Assembly (NCBI GenBank): GCA_963777045.1
Contig: CAVZPD010000009.1
Span: 371,009 to 435,008 of the forward strand
DNA length: 64,000 nt
Direction: 5' to 3'
Source: an uncultured Chloroflexia bacterium
GTDB lineage: Bacteria; Chloroflexota; Limnocylindria; QHBO01
In this document: piece by piece, positions 4,664-58,062 of the stretch
Layout: every line of letters begins with the position of its first letter
Position numbering within the stretch: the first letter of the stretch is position 1
Notes under the pieces: generated by a model
Seen by the model: only the letters and a program-made list of their open reading frames with translations
What the model was told of the DNA's origin: nothing
Databases searched by the model: none
Translations under genes and position numbers: made by a program

Positions 4664-5818
4664 ATGCAACGCATCGTGGTTCTCGGCGGGGGTGTCGGCG
4701 GCACCCTCGTCGCGAACCTCCTCGTCAGGAAACTGAAGTCCGAGATCGACCGCGGCGACGCGTCGGTGACTGTGGTGGACGAAAAGGGCGAGCACATCTA
4801 TCAGCCCGGCTACATGTACATCGCCATGGGGAACGAGAAGCCCGAGCGCCTGAAGAGGCCCGAGCGCTCGTTGCTCGACCGGCGGGTGCAGCTGGAGATC
4901 GGCCGGGCACAGAAGATCGACGTGGAGAAGCGCCAGGTCACCATCGAGGGGGACAGGACGCTCGACTACGACCAGCTCATCCTGGCTACCGGGTCACGGA
5001 TCGTGCCCGAGGAGATCGAGCACTTCGACACCGAGGCGCACCACTTCTACGGGCCTGCTGAGGCGCAGCGGTTACGTGACGCGCTCAACGCGTTCACCGG
5101 TGGCCGCATCGTGATCGGTATCGCGGGCATGCCCTACAAGTGCCCGCCCGCCCCGCTGGAGGTGGCCTTCCTGATCGAGGACGAGCTGCGGCAACGCAAG
5201 CTGCGCGATAAGACGGAGATGCACTACTGCAGCCCCATCGGCCGCGCCTTCACCATCGAGAGCGTGTCCGAGATGGTCACGCCAATCCTGGAGGAGAAGG
5301 GCATCGAGCTGCACACGTTCTTCAATGTCGAAACCATCGATCCGGAGAAGAAGACGATTGGCAGCCTGGAGGGCGAGGAGCTGCCGTACGACCTGCTGGT
5401 CCTGGTGCCGCCGCACAAGGGCGCGCAGATCGTGGTGGATGCCGGGTTGGCGCCGCCATCGGGCTGGCTTCCGACCGACCACCACACCCTGGAGGTCAAG
5501 GGCCATCCCGAGATCCATGCCCTGGGTGACGGCACCGACCTGCCGTTGTCGAAGGCCGGCTCGACGGCCCATTTCGAGGCGCCGGTGGTGGCGGAGCGCG
5601 TGTCGGCCGTGGTCAAGGGCGAGAAGCCGAGCGGGAAGCATGTCTCCTACGAGGGCAAGGTGATGTGCTTCTTCGAGGTCGGTGACGGCAAGGGCACGCT
5701 GCTGCAGTTCGACTACGAGCACCCGCCCAAGCCGCCGAAGCCGAATCGGTTCTGGCACCTGGGCAAAATCGTCTTCAACAAGACGTACTGGCACACCGTT
5801 CCAAGGGGACGCATCTAG
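4664..5818 (+). CDS. sqr: sulfide:quinone oxidoreductase-like FAD-dependent oxidoreductase
   Basis: ATG 4664 gives MQRIVVLGGGVGGTLVANLL, a Rossmann GxGxxG motif. The ~384 aa NAD/FAD disulfide oxidoreductase is of SQR type and adjacent to TusA/DsrE. Confidence 0.7.
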   Translation: MQRIVVLGGGVGGTLVANLLVRKLKSEIDRGDASVTVVDEKGEHIYQPGYMYIAMGNEKPERLKRPERSLLDRRVQLEIGRAQKIDVEKRQVTIEGDRTLDYDQLILATGSRIVPEEIEHFDTEAHHFYGPAEAQRLRDALNAFTGGRIVIGIAGMPYKCPPAPLEVAFLIEDELRQRKLRDKTEMHYCSPIGRAFTIESVSEMVTPILEEKGIELHTFFNVETIDPEKKTIGSLEGEELPYDLLVLVPPHKGAQIVVDAGLAPPSGWLPTDHHTLEVKGHPEIHALGDGTDLPLSKAGSTAHFEAPVVAERVSAVVKGEKPSGKHVSYEGKVMCFFEVGDGKGTLLQFDYEHPPKPPKPNRFWHLGKIVFNKTYWHTVPRGRI

Positions 5819-10500: not shown

Positions 10501-11752
10501 GGCGTCTGCATCGCCGTCGCGCGCGCGGCCCGCAGCGTCACGGAGGCGGCGTGTGCCGGCAGCCCCTCGACCGCGGCGATGGCCTCGACCGTCGGTGCCA
10601 GGCCGCACGCCGGCCGGCGTCACGCGCTGGACCTCCAGCCAGCGTCCGAACGACTCGACGCCGACGCCCCCGTACGCCCGGGCCGAGCCGCCGGTCGGCA
10701 GCACGTGGTTCGTGCCGGTGGCGTAGTCGCCGGCAGCCACGGCCGACCACGGACCGATGAAGATCGCGCCGGCATTCCGCACCCGCTCGGCGAGCGTCTC
10801 CGCGTCGCGGCACTGCAGGGAGAGGTGCTCCGGGGCGATGGCATCCGCCGCCTCGAGGGCGCCACCCATGTCGTCCACCAGCACCACGCGACCCCATTCG
10901 CGCAACGTCGACAGCGCCCGCTCACCGGTCGCCAGTGGCATGGCCTGGGTGGGGATCGCGGACTCCACGGCATCGGCCAGGGGGCGTCATCGGTGACCAG
11001 GACGCCAGCGAGTCCGGCCCGTGCTCGGCCTGTGCCAGGAGGTCGGCCGCCACCAGCTCGGCATCCGCGGAGGCATCGGCCACCACCACGCACTCGGACG
11101 GACCGGCCGGCAGGTCGATCGCCGTGTCGGCCGAGACCAGCCGTTTGGCCGCGGTGACCCAGGCATTGCCCGCGCCGAAGATGCGGTCGACGCGCGGCAC
11201 GCTTCGGTGCCATAGGCCAGCGCGGCGATCGCCTGCGCTCCGCCGACGCGGAGCACGCGCGCCACGCCCACCAGGGACGCCGCGTACAGGACGGCCGGAT
11301 CCACGCTGCCATCGGCCGCGGGTGGCGTGGCGACGATGAGCTCGTCCACGCCCGCCAGCTGAGCGGGGATTCCCAGCATGAGCACCGAGCTCGGGTAGCG
11401 TGCCCGGCCGCCAGGCACATAGCCACCCGCGCGGCGGAATCGGGACCCAGCGGCGCCAGGCCGTCACGCCTGGCCGCGTCCGCACGCGCCGGTCGGCGGA
11501 GAGGAACGAACGCTGGTCGGCGTGGTAGCGGCGAACCGCGGCCGCGCTGTCGCGCAACGCCTCGCGGACCTCGGGTGCCACGGCCTCGGCGGCGGCCGGG
11601 AGCGCCGCCTCGGGGACGAAGAGCGCGTCCAGCTCCACGCCGTCCAGCTCACGGGTCAGCTCCCGGAGGGCGCGGTCGCCATCGGTCCGCACCCGGGCCA
11701 GGATGGGAGCGACATCCGCGTCGGGAGTGCGGCCCGCAGTCCGGCCAGCCAA
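10497..11752 (-). CDS. hisD: histidinol dehydrogenase; several frameshifts, 3' end approximate
   Basis: Pieces are [20 protein letters not shown]...RRYHADQ; [26 protein letters not shown]; [19 protein letters not shown]...IDLPAGPSE...[11 protein letters not shown]; and a C-terminus ...[28 protein letters not shown] found in a shifted frame. Confidence 0.7.
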
Positions 11753-26470: not shown

Positions 26471-27542
26471 CACCCGGCCGGCGCCTCTTCGATGCGCTGG
26501 AGCCACGCAATCACGTCATCGGTCCGTCGCATGGCCGCGTCGTCCTCGGCCGTGGGCTGGGCCGATCCTGCGGGACATCCTCGACGAGCTGGGTGGCATG
26601 CCGTCGGTGGTCGTCGATCGCCGCGCGATGGCGCACCTCCCGCCGATCGGCGGCCGCTGCCTGGCGATCGCCGGCGGCGAGCGGGCGAAGCGGCTGCGCT
26701 CGCTGGAGCGGATCCTGGACTGGCTGGCGGCCGAGGGGGCGGAGCGGACCGACCCGCTGGTGGCGGTCGGCGGCGGCACGGTGGGCGACGTGGCCGGCTT
26801 CGCCGCCGCCACCTACGCCCGCGGCGTGCCGTACGTGGCGGTGCCGACCACCTGGCTCGCGCAGCTCGACGCCTCGATCGGCGGCAAGGTGGCGGTCGAC
26901 CTGGCGGCCGGCAAGAACCTGGTGGGCGCCTTCTGGCCGGCGTGGGCGGTGCTGGCCGATGTCGCGGCGCTGCGCACCCTGCCGCGTGCCCGGCTGCGCG
27001 ACGGACTGGCCGAGGCGGCCAAGGCCGGGATCATCGGCGACCCGGCGCTGTGGCGGCTGATCGCGGAGCGCGGGCGCGAGGCGCTGGGCGGCGACGAGGC
27101 GGTGCGCGCTACGCGATCACCGAGCGGGCGGTGCGCGTGAAGCTGGCGGTCGTCCGCCGCGATCCATTCGAGCGCGGCGAGCGGCGCGTCCTGAACCTGG
27201 GCCACACCATCGGTCATGCGCTGGAGGCGGAGGCGGGCTATCGGCTCGCGCACGGCGACGCGGTGGCGCTCGGCATGCGCGCGGTGGCCGCCATCGCGGC
27301 CGGACGGGGCGGCGATCCGGCGCTGTCCGCGGAGCTGGACGAGGTGCTGTCGGGCCTCGGCTTCCCGCTGACGCCATCGGTTCGACCCGGTGGCGGTCCA
27401 CGCGAAGCTGCGAACCGACAAGAAGCGCGTGGCGGGCCGGCAGCGCTGGCTGCTGCCGATGGCCATCGGCCGGGTGGAGGAGGTCGACGACGTGACCGAT
27501 GACGAGCTGGCGCGCGCGCTGCGCGCCATCGGGCAGGAGTAG
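26470..27542 (+). CDS. aroB: 3-dehydroquinate synthase; frameshifts at both ends
   Basis: LAIAGGERAKRLRSLERILDWLAAEGAERTDPLVAVGGGTVGDVAGFAAATYARGVPYVAVPTTWLAQLDASIGGKVAVD is the core. The C-terminus ...RDPFERGERRVLNLGHTIGHALEAEAGYRLAHGDAVALGM... and the final ...AMAIGRVEEV...LRAIGQE* (TAG 27540-27542) are in other frames. Confidence 0.7.
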
Positions 27543-27546
27543 GAGC

Positions 27547-27979
27547 GTGCGCATCCTGCTGCTGAACGGCCCGAACCTGTCGACGCTGGGCCGCCGCCAG
27601 CCCGAGGTCTACGGCACCACCACGCTGCCGGAGATCGTCGAGGCCTGCCGCGCGCGCGCCCTGGAGCGCGGCGCGATGCTGGACGACCTGCAGTCGAACC
27701 ACGAGGGGGCGCTGATCGACCGCCTGGAGCAGCTCGACTACGACGCCGTCGTGATCAACCCCGGCGCCCTGTCGCACACCAGCTACGCGCTGCACGACGC
27801 GCTGCTTGCCTGCGATCGCCCGGCGGTCGAGGTGCACATCTCGCGACATCACGACCCGCGAGCCGTGGCGGCGGGTGAGCGTCACCGCGCCGGCAACGCG
27901 GCACCAGGTGGTGGGGAAGGGTTGGCGCGGCTACCTCGAGGCGGTCGACTGGCTGCTGGAGCATGCCGGCGACGCCTGA
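27547..27979 (+). CDS. aroQ: 3-dehydroquinate dehydratase, type II; single +1 insertion near 27845
   Basis: AGGAG plus GTG 27547 gives VRILLLNGPNLSTLGRRQPEVYGTTTL...AVEVHIS. After a 1-nt shift it continues DITTREPWRRVSVTAPATRHQVVGKGWRGYLEAVDWLLEHAGDA*, which matches the canonical type II DHQase C-terminus. Confidence 0.75.
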
Positions 27980-28047
27980 CCGCGCTGGACTGGCCCACCG
28001 CGTCCGAGCTTGCCGCCGCTGGAATCGCCTGTGGTGAGATTCCCCGG

Positions 28048-28902
28048 ATGACAGCGCAAGGATCACCGAAGGCGGCGTTCGGCAACCCGTGGGTCTGCGG
28101 CACCTGTGGAAACCACTACCCGCCCGCAGCGGAGCCGCCTAGCGTCTGCATCATCTGCGCGGATGAGCGCCAGTGGGTGCCGCCAACGGGTCAGCGCTGG
28201 ACGACGCTTCCCGAGCTGGCCGCGGCGGGGCATGCGGGCGACGTCCGGGAAGTGGAGCCCGGGCTGACCGGGATCGGCTTCGATCCGCCCGTCGCGATCG
28301 GACAACGGGCGCTGCTGGTCCAGACGGACGAGGGCAACGTGCTGTGGGATCCGCCCGGCTACATCGACGAGGTCGCCATCCGCGCGGTCCGGGCACGCGG
28401 CGGTCTTCATGCGGTGACGGCCAGCCACCCGCACTTCTACGGCGCGATCGTCGAGTGGAGCCGAGCATTCAACGCGTCGATCCTCCTCCCCGAAGCCGAT
28501 GCACATTGGCTGACCAGGCCCGATCCGGCGGTTCAAACCTGGCGCGGCTCGCTTGAGGTGCTTCCCGGCGTCACGCTCGTCCAGTGCGGCGGTCACTTTG
28601 CGGGTAGCGCGGTTCTCCATTGGTCGGCCGGCGCCGATGGAGCGGGCGTCCTCCTGGCCGGCGACACGATCTTCGTCACGCCCGGCGAGGATCGCGTGAC
28701 CTTCGTTCGCAGCGCCCCGAACCGCCTGCCGCTCCCCGAACAGGCGGTGCGACAGGTGGTCGAGGCCGTGGGGCCCTACCCATTCGACCGGATCTACGGC
28801 GGCTGGTGGAAGCCGACGATCCACCGCGACGCACGCACGATCCTCGAGCAATCGGCCGACCGCTATATCCAGTGGCTTCGCGGCGAGGCCGCGTCTGATT
28901 GA
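28048..28902 (+). CDS. MBL-fold metallo-hydrolase with an N-terminal Cys4 zinc-ribbon motif
   Basis: MTAQGSPKAAFGNPWVCGTCGNHYPPAAEPPSVCIICADERQ (CxxC...CxxC) is followed by a metallo-beta-lactamase-like core (...VTASHPHFYGAIVEW...). It is open in the same frame as aroQ in the track. Confidence 0.55.
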   Translation: MTAQGSPKAAFGNPWVCGTCGNHYPPAAEPPSVCIICADERQWVPPTGQRWTTLPELAAAGHAGDVREVEPGLTGIGFDPPVAIGQRALLVQTDEGNVLWDPPGYIDEVAIRAVRARGGLHAVTASHPHFYGAIVEWSRAFNASILLPEADAHWLTRPDPAVQTWRGSLEVLPGVTLVQCGGHFAGSAVLHWSAGADGAGVLLAGDTIFVTPGEDRVTFVRSAPNRLPLPEQAVRQVVEAVGPYPFDRIYGGWWKPTIHRDARTILEQSADRYIQWLRGEAASD

Positions 28903-28976
28903 CTGACCAGCCGGGCTGTGGGGCGGCAACCTCCCGCGTGGCGCCTGGTGCAACGAATCACGCCAGGAGGACCTGC

Positions 28977-29145
28977 CCCGGCCGGTTCCTGCGCGAAACG
29001 TTGCCCTCACCGCAACAGAATGCGCGGGAGGGGCCGTTCGTGCGCCTGGCGTTGCATCTGCCGCAACAAACGACTCCAGAAGGCCGGTCCAGGGCCGGCT
29101 CGTGCGCAAAACGTTGCGCTCAGCGCAACGGGCGGTGCGGCGGGA
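28977..29145. repeat. three tandem ~54 bp repeats, each with an internal GTTGC-N7-GCAAC palindrome
   Basis: The units begin near 28977, 29031 and 29085. The consensus is gGCCGgtTCgTGCGCraaacGTTGC-n7-GCAAC. The palindromes are at 29000-29016, 29051-29067 and 29113-29129. The array sits in the convergent gap between the MBL gene and leuD. Confidence 0.6.
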
Positions 29146-29155
29146 TGCCGCGCGC

Positions 29156-29772
29156 CTACTGCGGCAGCGTGGAGATGCGCGGCGCGTGCGAGGCCTCGTA
29201 GGCGGAGATCGCCTCTTCCTGGGCGAGCAGGAAGCCGAGCTCATCGGTTCCGGTGAGGAGCATCTGGCGCGAGAACGGGTCGACCACAAAGCCGATGACC
29301 GAGCCGTCCGGCAGCCGCAGCTCCTGCGCCTCCAGGTCCACGCTGAGCGCCAGGTCGGGGTGCGCCTCCAGCAGGGCGGTGATGCGGCGCAGCTCCTCCG
29401 CCGGCACCTCGATGGGCAGCAGGCCGTTCTTCAGCGCGTTGGCCTTGAAGATGTCGGCGAAGGAGGAGCTGATCACCGCGCGGAAGCCCCACGCGGTGAG
29501 CGCCCAGGGCGCGTGCTCGCGCGACGAGCCGCAGCCGAAGTTGTCGCCGGCCACCAGCACCTGCCGCCCGGCCGCGCCGCGGGCGCGTTCAGGACGAAGT
29601 CGGCCCGCGGCGAGCCGTCGTCGGCGTAGCGCCAGTCGGCGAAGAGCTGATCGGCCAGGCCAGAACGGTTGATGGTCTTCAGGAAGCGGGCCGGGATGAT
29701 CTGGTCCGTGTCGACGTTGTCGCGCGGCAGCAGCACGGCCGCGGATTCGACGTGGGTGAAGGGCTCGCTCAT
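29156..29772 (-). CDS. leuD: 3-isopropylmalate dehydratase small subunit; one frameshift near 29565
   Basis: [49 protein letters not shown]... then changes frame to ...[20 protein letters not shown]...*. Confidence 0.75.
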
Positions 29773-31199
29773 CCCAGCGCCCTCGGATCGGTGAGGCGGC
29801 CGGTAACCGCGGACGCCACTGCGGTCAGCGGGGACGCCAGGAACGTGCGCCCGCCCTTCCCCTGCCGCCCCTCGAAGTTGCGGTTCGACGTCGAGACCGC
29901 GTACTGCCCCGGCGACAGCTGGTCGCCGTTCATGGCGATGCACATGGAGCAACCGGCCTCACGCCACTCGGCGCCGGCCTCGCGGAAGACGGACGCCAAT
30001 CCCTCGATCTCTGCCTGGCGCTTCACCTCGGTGGAGCCCGGGACGACCATGACCCGCACGCCATCGGCCACCCGGCGTCCGCGCAGCATGCGCGCCGCCT
30101 CCCGCAGGTCCGAAATGCGCGAGTTGGTGCATGAGCCGATGAAGACCACGTCGATCGGCTTGCCCAGCACCTGCTCGCCGGGATTCAGCGCCATGTAGGC
30201 CAGCGCCGACTCCAGCGAGGATCGTGCCACGGCATCCGACAGCGAGGCGGGATCGGGAATGCGCGACGTGATCCCGAAGCCCATGCCGGGGTTGGTGCCG
30301 TAGGTGACCATCGGCTCGAGCGCTGCCGCGTCAAGCGTGATCGAGCGGTCGTAGGTGGCGCCCTCGTCCGAGGGGAGCCGGCGCCATCGGTCCAGCGCGG
30401 CCTCCCAGTCCGGACCGGCGGGGGCATGCGGTCGTCCGGCGACGTACTCGAAGGTCGTCTCGTCGGGCGCGACCAGCCCGGCGCGTGCGCCGCCCTCGAT
30501 GCTCATGTTGCAGATCGTCATGCGCTGCTCCATGCCCAGCGCGCGTATGGCCGAGCCGCCGTACTCGAAGACGTGCCCGGTCCCGCCCGCCACGCCGATC
30601 CGCGACAGCAGCGCCAGGATGATGTCCTTGGCGGTCACGCCCGGGTGAAGCGCCCCCTCCACGCGCACCTCGAAGGTCTTCGGCCGCCGCTGCAGCAGGC
30701 ACTGGGTGGCGAGCACGTGCTCAACCTCGGAGGTGCCGATCCCGAAGGCCAGCGCCCCGAAGGCGCCGTGCGTGGCGGTGTGGCTGTCGCCGCACACGAT
30801 CGTCATGCCCGGCTGCGTCAGTCCCAGCTCCGGACCGATGACGTGGACGATCCCCTGGTGCGGCGAGCCGATCCCATGCAGCGGGATGCCGAACTCCTTG
30901 CAATTGTCCTCAAGGCGGCGAACCTGGGCTGCCGCCATCTCGTCGACGATGGGCAGGCTGCGATCCGTGGTCGGGATGGAGTGGTCGGCGGTCGCCACCG
31001 TCTGCTCGGGGTGGCGGACGCGGAGGCCCCGGGCGCGCAGCCCGTCGAAGGCCTGCGGGCTGGTCACCTCGTGGACGAGGTGCAGGTCGATGCCCAGCAC
31101 GTCGGGCACGCCGTCGCCGCCCGGGACGACGACGTGCTCGTCCCAGATCTTCTCGACGATCGTTCGCGGGCGCGGAGGAGTAAGGGTCGGTTCGCTCAT
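29769..31199 (-). CDS. leuC: 3-isopropylmalate dehydratase large subunit
   Basis: Intact. ATG 31199 gives [24 protein letters not shown]...GIVHVIGPE...[31 protein letters not shown].... The stop overlaps the leuD start. Confidence 0.85.
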
Positions 31200-31224: not shown

Positions 31225-31650
31225 TCAAGAGGGCGCGACGGTGAACCCTTCGCGCTGCGCCGCATCGGCCAGGCGGCCGTCGAAGGTGACGAAGGCGAGG
31301 CTGGCCGGATGCCCTTCGGCGGCCGACAGCGCAGCGGCCAGCTGGAGGGCATCGGCGGCACGCAGTGGGTGCACTCGCAGGATTCGAATGGCCGACTGAC
31401 GCAACTGATCCGAGGGCTCAACTTCCTGCCACGACGCAGTCAGCTCGTCCAGGCGATGCATTGCGCGGGCGAAGGCGCCGGGTTGAAGCCGATCCTCTCG
31501 TTGGCGCCGGGCCATGGCCGATACGACTTCGACGCCCGTCCCCCACCAGGTGACCAGGTCCGGATCACGCTCGAATTCGGCTCGGGCTTGGCCGTGCTCC
31601 GGCTCGCCGATCAGCAGGGGCACAATCGCTGAGCTATCCCAGAACTTCAC
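31225..31650 (-). CDS. vapC: type II toxin VapC (PIN domain)
   Basis: [52 protein letters not shown]... is a PIN-domain toxin signature. It overlaps the antitoxin stop by 4 nt. Confidence 0.7.
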
Positions 31651-31940
31651 CGGCCTGTCCGCCGCTCCTCGAGCAGAGCTTCGAGGACGCTTCCGCCGGG
31701 CTCGACCGCCGGCGGCGCCTCCCGCATGAGATCGATTGGCGGGGCTGACCTGCCGCGCCGGATGATGCCGGCCCGCTCGAGCCGCGCGATGCGACCGTCA
31801 GGATCCGGGTGGCTCGCCATGGGCTCCAAACGTGCCACCGGGACACCGCGATCGGTGATGACCACCGACTCACCCGCTCGCACGCGGTCGATCAGCGCAC
31901 TCAGCCCGTTCTTTGCCTCGGTGATCGTGGCTGTCTTCAT
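31647..31940 (-). CDS. vapB: type II antitoxin (Phd/YefM or VapB-like)
   Basis: MKTATITEAKNGLSALIDRVRAGESVVITDRGVPVARLEPM... is the prevent-host-death/YefM-like antitoxin N-terminus. Confidence 0.7.
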   Translation of the reverse strand: MKTATITEAKNGLSALIDRVRAGESVVITDRGVPVARLEPMASHPDPDGRIARLERAGIIRRGRSAPPIDLMREAPPAVEPGGSVLEALLEERRTGR

Positions 31941-56702: not shown

Positions 56703-58062
56703 GCTCAGTGAGTTTGTCAGTCTCCACCGATGGAGGAGACGATCTGCATGAGCAGTACCGAGCAGCGACGAGCCTGGATCCTGACGAAGCTGTTGGTCGG
56801 CGAGGTCACCGTCGCTGAGGCGGCGGCGCTGCTGCAGCTGAGCGGGCGCCAGGTGTGGCGGCTCAAGGTTCGGTTTGAGCGCGACGGGCCAGCCGGGCTG
56901 GTCCATGCCAACCGCGGACGGGCCAGCCCGCGGCGCCTGCCCGGCCCGGTGCGCGAGCAGATCCTCGAGCTGGCGCGCGGTCGCTACGCCGGCGTCAACG
57001 ACTGCCACCTGGCCGAGCTGCTGGCCGAGCACGAGGCGATCACCATCAGCCGTGCCGCCCTGCGCCGCCTGCTGCGTGCGGCCGGCCTGGCCAGCCCGCG
57101 CCGGCGTCGTCGTCCGCGGCATCGCAGCCGGCGCGATCGCATGCCGCAGGCCGGACTGCTGCTGCAGGTCGACGGCTCACGTCACGACTGGCTCGAGGGC
57201 CGCGGACCGCGCATGACCCTGGTCGGCGGCATCGACGACGCCACCGGTCTGGTCAGCGGTGCGGTCTTCCGCGAGCAGGAGGACGCCGCCGGCTACCTGG
57301 AGGTGCTGCGCGACACGCTGCGCCGCCACGGTGTGCCGGCGGCGGTGTATCGCGATCGGCACACCATCTTCGAGGCATCTGACCGGGCACTGACCCTCGA
57401 GGAGCAGCTGGCCGACACGCGGTTGCCGACCCAGGTCGGCCGTGCGCTTGACGAGCTGGGCATCACCTCGGTCGCCGCCCACTCACCCCAGGCCAAGGGC
57501 CGCATCGAGCGGCTGTGGGGCACCTTTCAGGACCGGCTGGTGACCGAGCTGCGTCTGGCGGGTGCCAATGATCGTGACGCCGCCAACCGGGTGCTGGCCG
57601 CCTTCCTGCCCAAGTTCAACCGACGCTTCACGGTGGCGCCGCTCGATCCGACGCCCGCCTGGCGCGCCGCACCCGGCCGCGCCGCAGCCGAGCGCATCTG
57701 CTGCCTCAAGTACCGGCGCGTGGTAGCCAACGATCACACCATCCGGGCTGGTGCCAGCCTCCTGCAGCTGCCACCGCGCGCCGATCGGCGCAGCTATGCC
57801 GGCGCACGGGTTGAGCTCCAGCTGCGGCTCGACGGGCGGTTGGTGGTGTGGGACGGCCAGCGCGAGCTGCTGAGCGTGCCGGCACCCGCCCAGCCGTTCC
57901 AGCTGCGGACCCTGACCGCGGCCCGCGGCAACCTTGGCAGCCGACCGCCGAGCGCCGGCTATCGGCCGCCGGCCAATCACCCGTGGCGGCGCGGTCCCAC
58001 CACCCGACGCAGCCCGACAGTGACAGAATCACCGAGCAAATGAGCTGACAGACTCACTGATC
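56703..58062 (+). mobile_element. insertion sequence (~1.36 kb, single DDE transposase ORF, ~18 bp imperfect terminal inverted repeats)
   Basis: Left end GCTCAGTGAGTTTGTCAG matches the reverse complement of the right end GATCAGTGAGTCTGTCAG (2 mismatches). Between them is one 437 aa transposase ORF. No clear target-site duplication is visible. Confidence 0.6.
56730..58043 (+). CDS. DDE transposase (N-terminal HTH plus integrase-core domain; ISNCY-like by recollection)
   Basis: MSSTEQRRAWILTKLLVGEVTVAEAAALLQLSGRQVWRLKVRFERDGPAGLVHANRGR...LLLQVDGSRHDW...GIDDATGLV...VYRDRHTIFEA...SPQAKGRIERLWGTFQDRL.... The family name is an inference and not verified. Confidence 0.65.
   Translation: MEETICMSSTEQRRAWILTKLLVGEVTVAEAAALLQLSGRQVWRLKVRFERDGPAGLVHANRGRASPRRLPGPVREQILELARGRYAGVNDCHLAELLAEHEAITISRAALRRLLRAAGLASPRRRRRPRHRSRRDRMPQAGLLLQVDGSRHDWLEGRGPRMTLVGGIDDATGLVSGAVFREQEDAAGYLEVLRDTLRRHGVPAAVYRDRHTIFEASDRALTLEEQLADTRLPTQVGRALDELGITSVAAHSPQAKGRIERLWGTFQDRLVTELRLAGANDRDAANRVLAAFLPKFNRRFTVAPLDPTPAWRAAPGRAAAERICCLKYRRVVANDHTIRAGASLLQLPPRADRRSYAGARVELQLRLDGRLVVWDGQRELLSVPAPAQPFQLRTLTAARGNLGSRPPSAGYRPPANHPWRRGPTTRRSPTVTESPSK

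Follow-up and report, generated by a model that had tools for sequence, protein, structure and literature searches.

What kind of element is the row of short palindromes of the form GTTGC-N7-GCAAC that lies between two converging genes of an uncultured soil bacterium of the Chloroflexota, and what, if anything, does it do there? The palindromes occur in a single gap within the 64-kb stretch of DNA analysed here, referred to below as the window. The array is most likely an intergenic hairpin minisatellite of the terminator or REP-like type, which is a known kind of element. The features on which this assignment depends are given below in window coordinates.

28048..28902, + strand: MBL-fold hydrolase gene (284 aa; Pfam Lactamase_B; best homologue 90% identical)
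28903..29167, no strand: segment inserted relative to the nearest relatives (~265 bp in place of ~12 bp)
28915..28976, + strand: unit c0 (type A, degenerate), core GTGGC-N7-GCAAC at 28938-28954; part of the 113-nt repeat
28936..29048, + strand: 113-bp compound unit (A+B), first copy, from repeat finding (72% identity between copies)
28977..29030, + strand: unit c1 (type B, interrupted hairpin), core at 29000-29016
29031..29081, + strand: unit c2 (type A), core at 29051-29067; left box kept, outer stem lost
29049..29161, + strand: 113-bp compound unit (A+B), second copy; aligned part 29049 to 29140
29082..29100, + strand: further small hairpin, GGCCGGUC-CAG-GGCCGGCU, that overlaps unit c3 at its GGCCGG box
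29093..29147, + strand: unit c3 (type B), core at 29113-29129
29108..29130, - strand: candidate leuD intrinsic terminator, the c3 hairpin followed by UUUU (29111-29108)
29156..29772, - strand: leuD, frameshifted near 29560 (two ORFs that overlap in different frames and, once rejoined, give an Aconitase_C match)

The core has exactly three perfect copies in the window, those of c1, c2 and c3, against a chance expectation of 0.03 per 64 kb, and three copies were reached in 0 of 100 dinucleotide-preserving shuffles. The remainder of the window contains no exact match. Each exact core has the sequence GGCCGgTTCsTGCGC 5' of the palindrome, and the 37-nt consensus GGCCGNTTCNTGCGC-N4-CGTTGC-N7-GCAAC matches the three array sites only, with 0, 2 and 1 mismatches (0.01 matches expected in the window). 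The core of c0 is degenerate and differs by one mismatch. Cores relaxed to this level number nine in the window, compared with 5.9 expected, and four of the nine fall inside the array. The true repeat is a compound unit of 113 nt present twice (28936-29027 vs 29049-29140), the core spacings are 62, 51 and 62, and alignment of the units shows their types alternating A-B-A-B. The first-pass annotation had described three ~54-bp tandem copies with a shared consensus. The three palindromic units are real and the consensus does single them out, but a fourth unit has to be added, the period is compound rather than uniform, and what had looked like non-conserved tails in c1 and c3 are the 3' arms of outer stems. 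The copies are only ~65–75% alike, and because of this the array was not reported by Tandem Repeats Finder. Among the exact cores the half-sites are invariant and the 7-nt spacer is variable. Divergence between copies is likewise blocky, with stems and boxes kept and loops and linkers at random-level identity. The G+C content of the gap is the same as that of its surroundings.

Folding of the individual units pairs the left box (UCSUGCGC) with the unit tail (UGCG(G)CGGGA) in c1 and c3, which are therefore predicted to be interrupted hairpins of 46-50 nt. In both, the prediction gives a GC-rich outer stem, then a 4x4 internal loop and then the inner stem GUUGC/GCAAC. In c1 the outer stem is formed by UCCUGCGCG/UGCGCGGGA and the inner stem carries a 7-nt loop; the fold has a predicted energy of -21.0 kcal/mol on the + strand (z = -3.75) and -18.3 kcal/mol on the - strand. 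The sequence of loop 1, CCUCACC, is C-rich. Unit c3 (copy 3) folds at -22.5 to -25.4 kcal/mol on the + strand (z = -2.05) and at -16.7 kcal/mol on the - strand. Its core is a perfect 8-bp stem, CGTTGCGC-TCA-GCGCAACG (29112-29130), as had been noticed at first reading and as both the sequence and the fold confirm; this core alone is worth -11.4 kcal/mol and the outer stem surrounds it. At one position of the outer stem c1 has C-G where c3 has G-C, which looks like a compensatory pair in the predicted folds. Unit c2, degenerate like c0, folds weakly (-8 and -11.9 kcal/mol, z near 0). The extra hairpin at 29082..29100 is ordinary (-13.3 kcal/mol, z = -0.44). The invariant 5-bp inner stem is weak by itself (-3.7 to -5.3 kcal/mol) and is extended to 8 bp only in copy 3. 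Taken whole, the 253-nt gap folds no better than shuffled sequences (z = -1.0 and -1.5).

On the leuD strand the copy 3 hairpin begins 26 nt past the leuD stop codon. On the - strand UUUUG stands behind copy 3 and GUUUCG behind c1; among the four units a real U-run is confined to c3, and on the + strand no array hairpin has a U-run after it. A consensus terminator scan (at least five T in eight bases) called none in the array region, and a simple consensus scan found no promoter-like site there. No Rfam model overlaps 28903-29155, even at E values up to 10, and an Rfam search of 20 array-bearing loci returned nothing but tRNA genes. With its 8-bp stem and UUUU, copy 3 on the leuD strand looks like a terminator of leuD, a resemblance that is based on predicted folding.

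The array has a stop codon on either side, that of the MBL-fold gene (28902, + strand) and that of leuD (29156, - strand), with leuC beyond leuD, and the convergent setting originally proposed for it is thus correct. Homologues of LeuD are 92% identical. For LeuD and AroQ the named homologues belong to MAGs that carry the label Ca. Limnocylindria (a Chloroflexota class), and for the MBL-fold gene they are actinomycete. Three metagenomic contigs (L216, L206 and L052) share ~91% identity with the flanking genes of the window (88-92% in the coding flanks of L216 and L206). In L216 the order is the same (aroA ... aroQ-MBL, then the 3' end of leuD) and the stop codons are separated by TGA-GGAGAG-CTA alone; in L206 leuC-leuD faces the MBL-fold gene across a 6-bp gap. 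L052 has the same MBL/leuD junction (1154-1510) with an unrelated, unalignable insert of 355 bp, which has its own inverted repeats (arms of 24-29 nt) and no core. The array is therefore absent from all three nearest relatives, two of which have a 6-bp gap, and this identifies it as a recent, lineage-specific insertion that was locally amplified. Judged from these sequences, it arose after the split from the L216, L206 and L052 lineages. The insertion alters the C-terminus of leuD from ...STT* to ...STLPQ*. No target-site duplication was found at the insert, and the only inverted repeat near its ends is weak (15 nt, 80% complementary).

Several other features of this neighbourhood were observed. 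Given the different insert in L052, the MBL/leuD junction seems to be an insertion hot spot. More distant relatives show that convergence of leuCD and the aro operon is general in the class, and that the set of genes between the two varies. A contig from Ca. Limnocylindrales (L220 1165-1340, also at the end of L219) has, in the gap after leuD, four CCGAT-NN-ATCGG palindromes spaced 50/64/50 with a super-period of 114, the same ABAB architecture as the 62/51/62 of the window. The core is different and the two arrays have no sequence similarity. Directly upstream of leuC in the window is a PIN (VapC-like) and Phd/YefM antitoxin pair (31225-31940), which is kept at the same place in L217. Many genes of the window are frameshifted (27499-28902, 29156-29952 and elsewhere): aroQ continues in frame into the MBL ORF, and a by-eye reading of the translations shows metY-like and argD-like genes split as well. 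In a blastn comparison of the window with L216, gaps are opened 34 times over 6.4 kb. Either indel errors are abundant in the assembly or there are many pseudogenes.

The unit appears to be confined to this locus in everything that was searched. There is no further copy of the 37-nt unit in the window, even with 10 of 37 mismatches allowed. Among 185,579 representative genomes (one per species), the pattern TCSTGCGC-N4-CGTTGC-N7-GCAAC has 51 single matches in unrelated phyla; these are mostly chance matches inside coding sequence, and none of the 51 is an array. A stricter unit pattern has 0 matches in the JGI metagenomes, which do include relatives 90% identical, and no plasmid or phage sequence matches the 265-bp segment. 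The insert has no detectable homology to the arrays of L084, L218 and L220, to the L052 insert or to the other loci compared. Direct reading of the units revealed no GTAG-type box, and no RAYT or Y1-transposase-like gene was recognised in a by-eye reading of the window translations. At 56705-58060 there is an IS element whose terminal inverted repeats are 16 nt long (TCAGTGAGTTTGTCAG / CTGACAGACTCACTGA). Its transposase ORF spans 56712-58040, and the element has no relation to the array. The first-pass annotation had suggested a small REP/MITE-like family, which holds loosely, in that the units are extragenic imperfect palindromes, but no second locus exists in the window, representative genomes, metagenomes, plasmids or phages. 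It had also proposed searching for the unit and its 17-bp core elsewhere: judged by the standard of refutation set there, the 54-bp unit does not stand up, being neither found again nor conserved, but the core does recur in other arrays.

These other arrays come from a loose metagenome scan for two GTTGC-N7-GCAAC cores 43-73 bp apart, which gave at least 120 contigs, with 73 sequence families among the matches listed. Conservation of the core among these loci is ascertained, the search having used the core, and is no independent evidence. The matches listed are heterogeneous. Some are near-identical minisatellites with periods of 54-62 bp; others have variable loops and linkers and lie directly after stop codons or after a tRNA-Leu gene; in L127 the cores are in promoter regions. 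Those in high-GC families are not CRISPR-like, their loops and linkers varying between copies. Among the high-GC families listed (L055-L174), adjacent cores are spaced 60-63 bp apart in 20 cases compared with 8.5 expected, and 71-73 bp apart in 13 compared with 6.4 expected. Helical phasing of the spacings is not established, as the Rayleigh test gives p ~0.01 equally for any period from 9.5 to 12. In viral contigs the tandem GTTGC/GCAAC pattern occurs 21 times, compared with 6 and 4 for the composition-matched palindromes GTGTC/GACAC and GTTCG/CGAAC. None of the listed arrays elsewhere has the left box of the window or any other sequence shared with it.

At least some of the loci come from the class of the window. 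L084 is syntenic with it (aroB 69% and aroQ 75% amino-acid identity) and has at least seven GTTGC-N7-GCAAC-like cores directly after aroQ (1053-1374), organised as a 133-bp super-repeat. A close relative of L084, L218, has one or two cores at the equivalent site after aroQ (5433-5500), and the two counts show rapid copy-number change in an analogous array. In ~140 kb of DNA from relatives, the L218 site is the one place where the core occurs. L090 is in the class of the window, with ribosomal protein S6 and SSB identical to proteins of a Ca. Limnocylindria MAG. In L134 (1323-1493) two cores 62 bp apart lie directly 3' of tRNA-Leu(UAA), and L090 has the same array (5361-5480 and 10872-10957). 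In L090 the array abuts an apparent partial tRNA-Leu 3' end, with a full tRNA-Leu 5.4 kb away. The arrangement in L090 and L134 suggests an element integrated at a tRNA gene.

Further contexts of the core are more varied. An XRE-type HTH gene (228 aa; HTH_31; weakly like the restriction-modification controller C.BclI) is present in L111 (183-1138), L114 (3109-4317) and L085 (60-1054) with GTTGC-N7-GCAAC cores upstream and/or downstream. Its product is a candidate for the protein that binds them; no homologue exists in the window. In L015 (707-760) and L045 (3734-3787), contigs from Actinomycetota MAGs, two of the palindromes stand 2 nt apart (GTTGCGTCCTGCGCAAC-CC-GTTGCGCAGGACGCAAC) just upstream of an IclR-type gene that adjoins a dimethylglycine-dehydrogenase-like gene, and this pair looks like an autoregulatory operator. 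L057, L110, L074, L083 and L096 contain paired elements consisting of an A-run, a ~20-bp stem and a T-run, in which the tip, CGTTGCGC-TSA-GCGCAACG, is that of copy 3. All belong to one high-GC lineage, in which they are found at three separate 3' intergenic sites and resemble a bidirectional-terminator family. In L072, L080, L097 and L129, all from sample ERZ869909, a REP-like palindrome (GGCGATCGTTGCCGTTGCGGCAACGATCGCC) is dispersed between genes and also found in tandem, with periods of 54, 58 and 62 bp.

On balance these observations make it probable that the array is a young, lineage-specific hairpin minisatellite, locally amplified, which acts, if at all, through hairpins in the transcripts as a terminator or barrier. 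Its history may have begun with a short imperfect-palindrome DNA inserted between the converging MBL and leuD stop codons, where the ancestral gap would have been 6 bp. Tandem duplication on the spot, from A to AB and then ABAB, would have produced two 113-bp compound units and four hairpin units. In the leuCD transcript (- strand) the GC-rich 8-bp stem of copy 3 and the UUUU behind it, just past the stop codon, could then end transcription. The c1 and c3 hairpins might serve as back-up stops, or as barriers to 3' exonucleases, for both converging transcripts, and such barriers would keep the two transcripts from running into each other. Both neighbouring genes end at the array, the c1 and c3 hairpins are the folds that stand out from shuffled sequence, and c3 has its UUUUG on the - strand. 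The unit is unique to the locus, relatives ~91% identical have a 6-bp gap or an unrelated insert, copy number differs in the analogous array of L084 and L218, and the hairpin with the copy 3 tip is found elsewhere, paired with A-runs and T-runs, in 3' intergenic regions. A compound bidirectional terminator is accordingly the best supported of the four roles first suggested for the array. Several points stand against it: the consensus scan calls no terminator here, the real U-run follows c3 only, the whole-region fold is not above shuffles and c2 has no outer stem. The invariant part is a weak, A/T-containing 5-bp stem in a genome of 70% G+C, which looks more like conservation of sequence than of stability. 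The relatives manage with a 6-bp gap, and therefore no terminator is required at this junction.

The array might instead be a series of phased binding sites for a dimeric protein recognising GTTGC-N7-GCAAC, forming a roadblock, an insulator or a centromere-like site. The invariant half-sites around a variable 7-nt spacer would suit such a protein, as would a stem too weak to matter as a hairpin, spacings of 62/51/62 that are near whole helical turns, and the 60-63 bp spacing of the core in many unrelated high-GC families among the matches listed (20 vs 8.5). Cores that flank the XRE-type gene in L111, L114 and L085, lie in promoter regions of L127 and precede the IclR-type gene in L015 and L045 are also consistent with recognition by a protein. 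Even so, binding is quite unlikely at this locus. The position is between two 3' ends with no promoter-like site, the three nearest relatives have no array, the window has neither an XRE homologue nor an adjacent regulator, and outside the array relaxed cores occur in the window about as often as chance predicts; the other arrays came to light through the same core and are thus ascertained, and the periodicity test is not specific to 10.5 bp. The earlier idea of a phased operator array fails on the first three of these grounds. A broader conjecture, to which we give little credence, is that GTTGC-N7-GCAAC arrays (preferred spacing ~62, also 51, 72 and 83 bp) recur among the high-GC bacteria of soil, Ca. 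Limnocylindria included, and are recognised by a dimeric DNA-binding protein that is itself conserved, conceivably the XRE-type HTH protein whose gene has cores beside it in L111, L114 and L085. At gene ends the array would form a phased roadblock, insulator or centromere-like site. The array of the window would be one member with fast turnover, and the CCGAT-NN-ATCGG array of L220 a re-specified version belonging to another lineage. Were the 17-bp core and ~62-bp spacing that recur across unrelated contigs to reflect a protein-binding system, the finding would matter more, and abundant soil bacteria would possess a class of chromosomal site not yet described.

Two other explanations of the array are each unlikely. 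The array could be one locus of many, a cluster within a dispersed mobile REP/MITE-like (BIME-like) family spread by a transposase in trans. Extragenic imperfect palindromes at a convergent junction, polymorphic for presence and absence between close relatives, are what such a family would leave. Dispersed GTTGC...GCAAC hairpin families do exist elsewhere (four ERZ869909 contigs carry GGCGATCGTTGCCGTTGCGGCAACGATCGCC, and three loci the copy-3-like tip), and arrays with the same core occur within the same class (L090 and L084). Against this are the single locus of the unit in 64 kb, the 0 strict matches in the JGI metagenomes, the ~140 kb of relatives' DNA that is coreless apart from the L218 site, the lack of a GTAG-type box or of a Y1/RAYT-like gene recognised by eye in the window, and the unrelated ends of the sole IS. 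Alternatively, the array is a functionless leftover, junk DNA made by slippage and tolerated between genes. Its absence from relatives with a 6-bp gap, the decay of the copies to 65-75% identity with c0 and c2 degenerate, and the different, unrelated insert of L052 at the same junction would all be expected of neutral DNA; the blocky divergence, in which stems and boxes are kept, is unlike the uniform decay of neutral tandem duplicates. That the region encodes one or more small RNAs, as had also been suggested, is scarcely credible. Stable local hairpins and the C-rich loop 1 point that way, but there is no promoter-like site, relevant Rfam match, conservation in relatives or exceptional overall fold.

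A number of specific candidates were rejected. CRISPR arrays have near-identical repeats and unique spacers of ~26-40 nt; here the copies are 65-75% alike, the loops differ, the linkers are 14-25 nt and Rfam CRISPR models do not match. By direct reading, an integron attC site (RYYYAAC ... GTTRRRY) is contradicted by CCGCAAC and GTTGCAT/GTTGCGC, which break the R/Y positions. A tRNA-like anticodon or T-arm is contradicted by loops that differ between copies and by the lack of U33. Leucine regulators of the IclR type (LtbR/NdgR) are known from actinobacteria, and an operator for one of these was discarded as no such gene adjoins leuC, where the PIN/Phd toxin-antitoxin pair is found instead. Derivation as a MITE from the IS of the window was rejected, the ends of that IS (TCAGTGAGTTTGTCAG) being unrelated to the array. 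A literature search on GTTGC and GCAAC as motif words gave nothing relevant.

As it stands the finding is of small importance, and the array a rather ordinary intergenic repeat that evolves fast. The finding shows the speed at which junctions between converging genes acquire hairpin repeats and multiply them in an uncultured lineage of Chloroflexota, and it provides a concrete candidate terminator for leuCD. It also serves as a caution that a neat, phased array of palindromes can be a very recent and dispensable insertion.

Among known systems, the REP and BIME elements of enterobacteria and pseudomonads have hundreds of dispersed copies, a GTAG-type box, alternating orientation in BIMEs and a RAYT transposase, and REPs are thought to stabilise or terminate transcripts. 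The array resembles them in consisting of extragenic imperfect palindromes of a few tens of nucleotides (~20-50 nt in c1 and c3), which in REPs too are often between converging genes, in its regularly spaced clustering and in being present or absent between close relatives. It differs in that its unit was found at one locus in the searches done, its repeats are direct, and neither a GTAG box nor a RAYT was seen. The plasmid centromere sopC of F is made of 43-bp tandem repeats, each with a short inverted repeat, and the likeness is in tandem units that each contain a short palindrome of fixed half-sites. The array differs in being chromosomal, in having four diverged units and no partition genes nearby, and in its absence from relatives. 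Compared with operator arrays in general, palindromic half-sites at fixed spacing are present (three exact, one with one mismatch); the position is at two gene ends rather than at a promoter, and the orthologous loci of L216, L206 and L052 have no array.

Closer parallels are found among tandem repeats and terminators. The mycobacterial MIRU are located within operons and contain short ORFs overlapping the neighbouring stop and start codons. Like VNTRs of this type, the array consists of tandem intergenic units of ~50-60 bp with a copy number that varies between relatives. MIRU copies are much more alike and are not palindrome-based, and the convergent junction and 62-bp period (not a multiple of 3) set the array apart from MIRU specifically. 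What does apply is the general description of a minisatellite, with head-to-tail units of 51-62 bp (or two of 113 bp) that are present here and absent in relatives. Compared with typical intrinsic terminators, the U-run is restricted to one of four units, the c1 and c3 stems are broken by 4x4 internal loops and the structures are predicted ones. The GC-rich stem-loop of copy 3 soon after the leuD stop codon, with UUUU on the leuD strand, nevertheless has the form of intrinsic terminators, including the TRIT motif, a conserved family of terminator hairpins in mycobacteria. The same hairpin tip is identical to that of the A-run/hairpin/T-run pairs in L057, L074, L083, L096 and L110.
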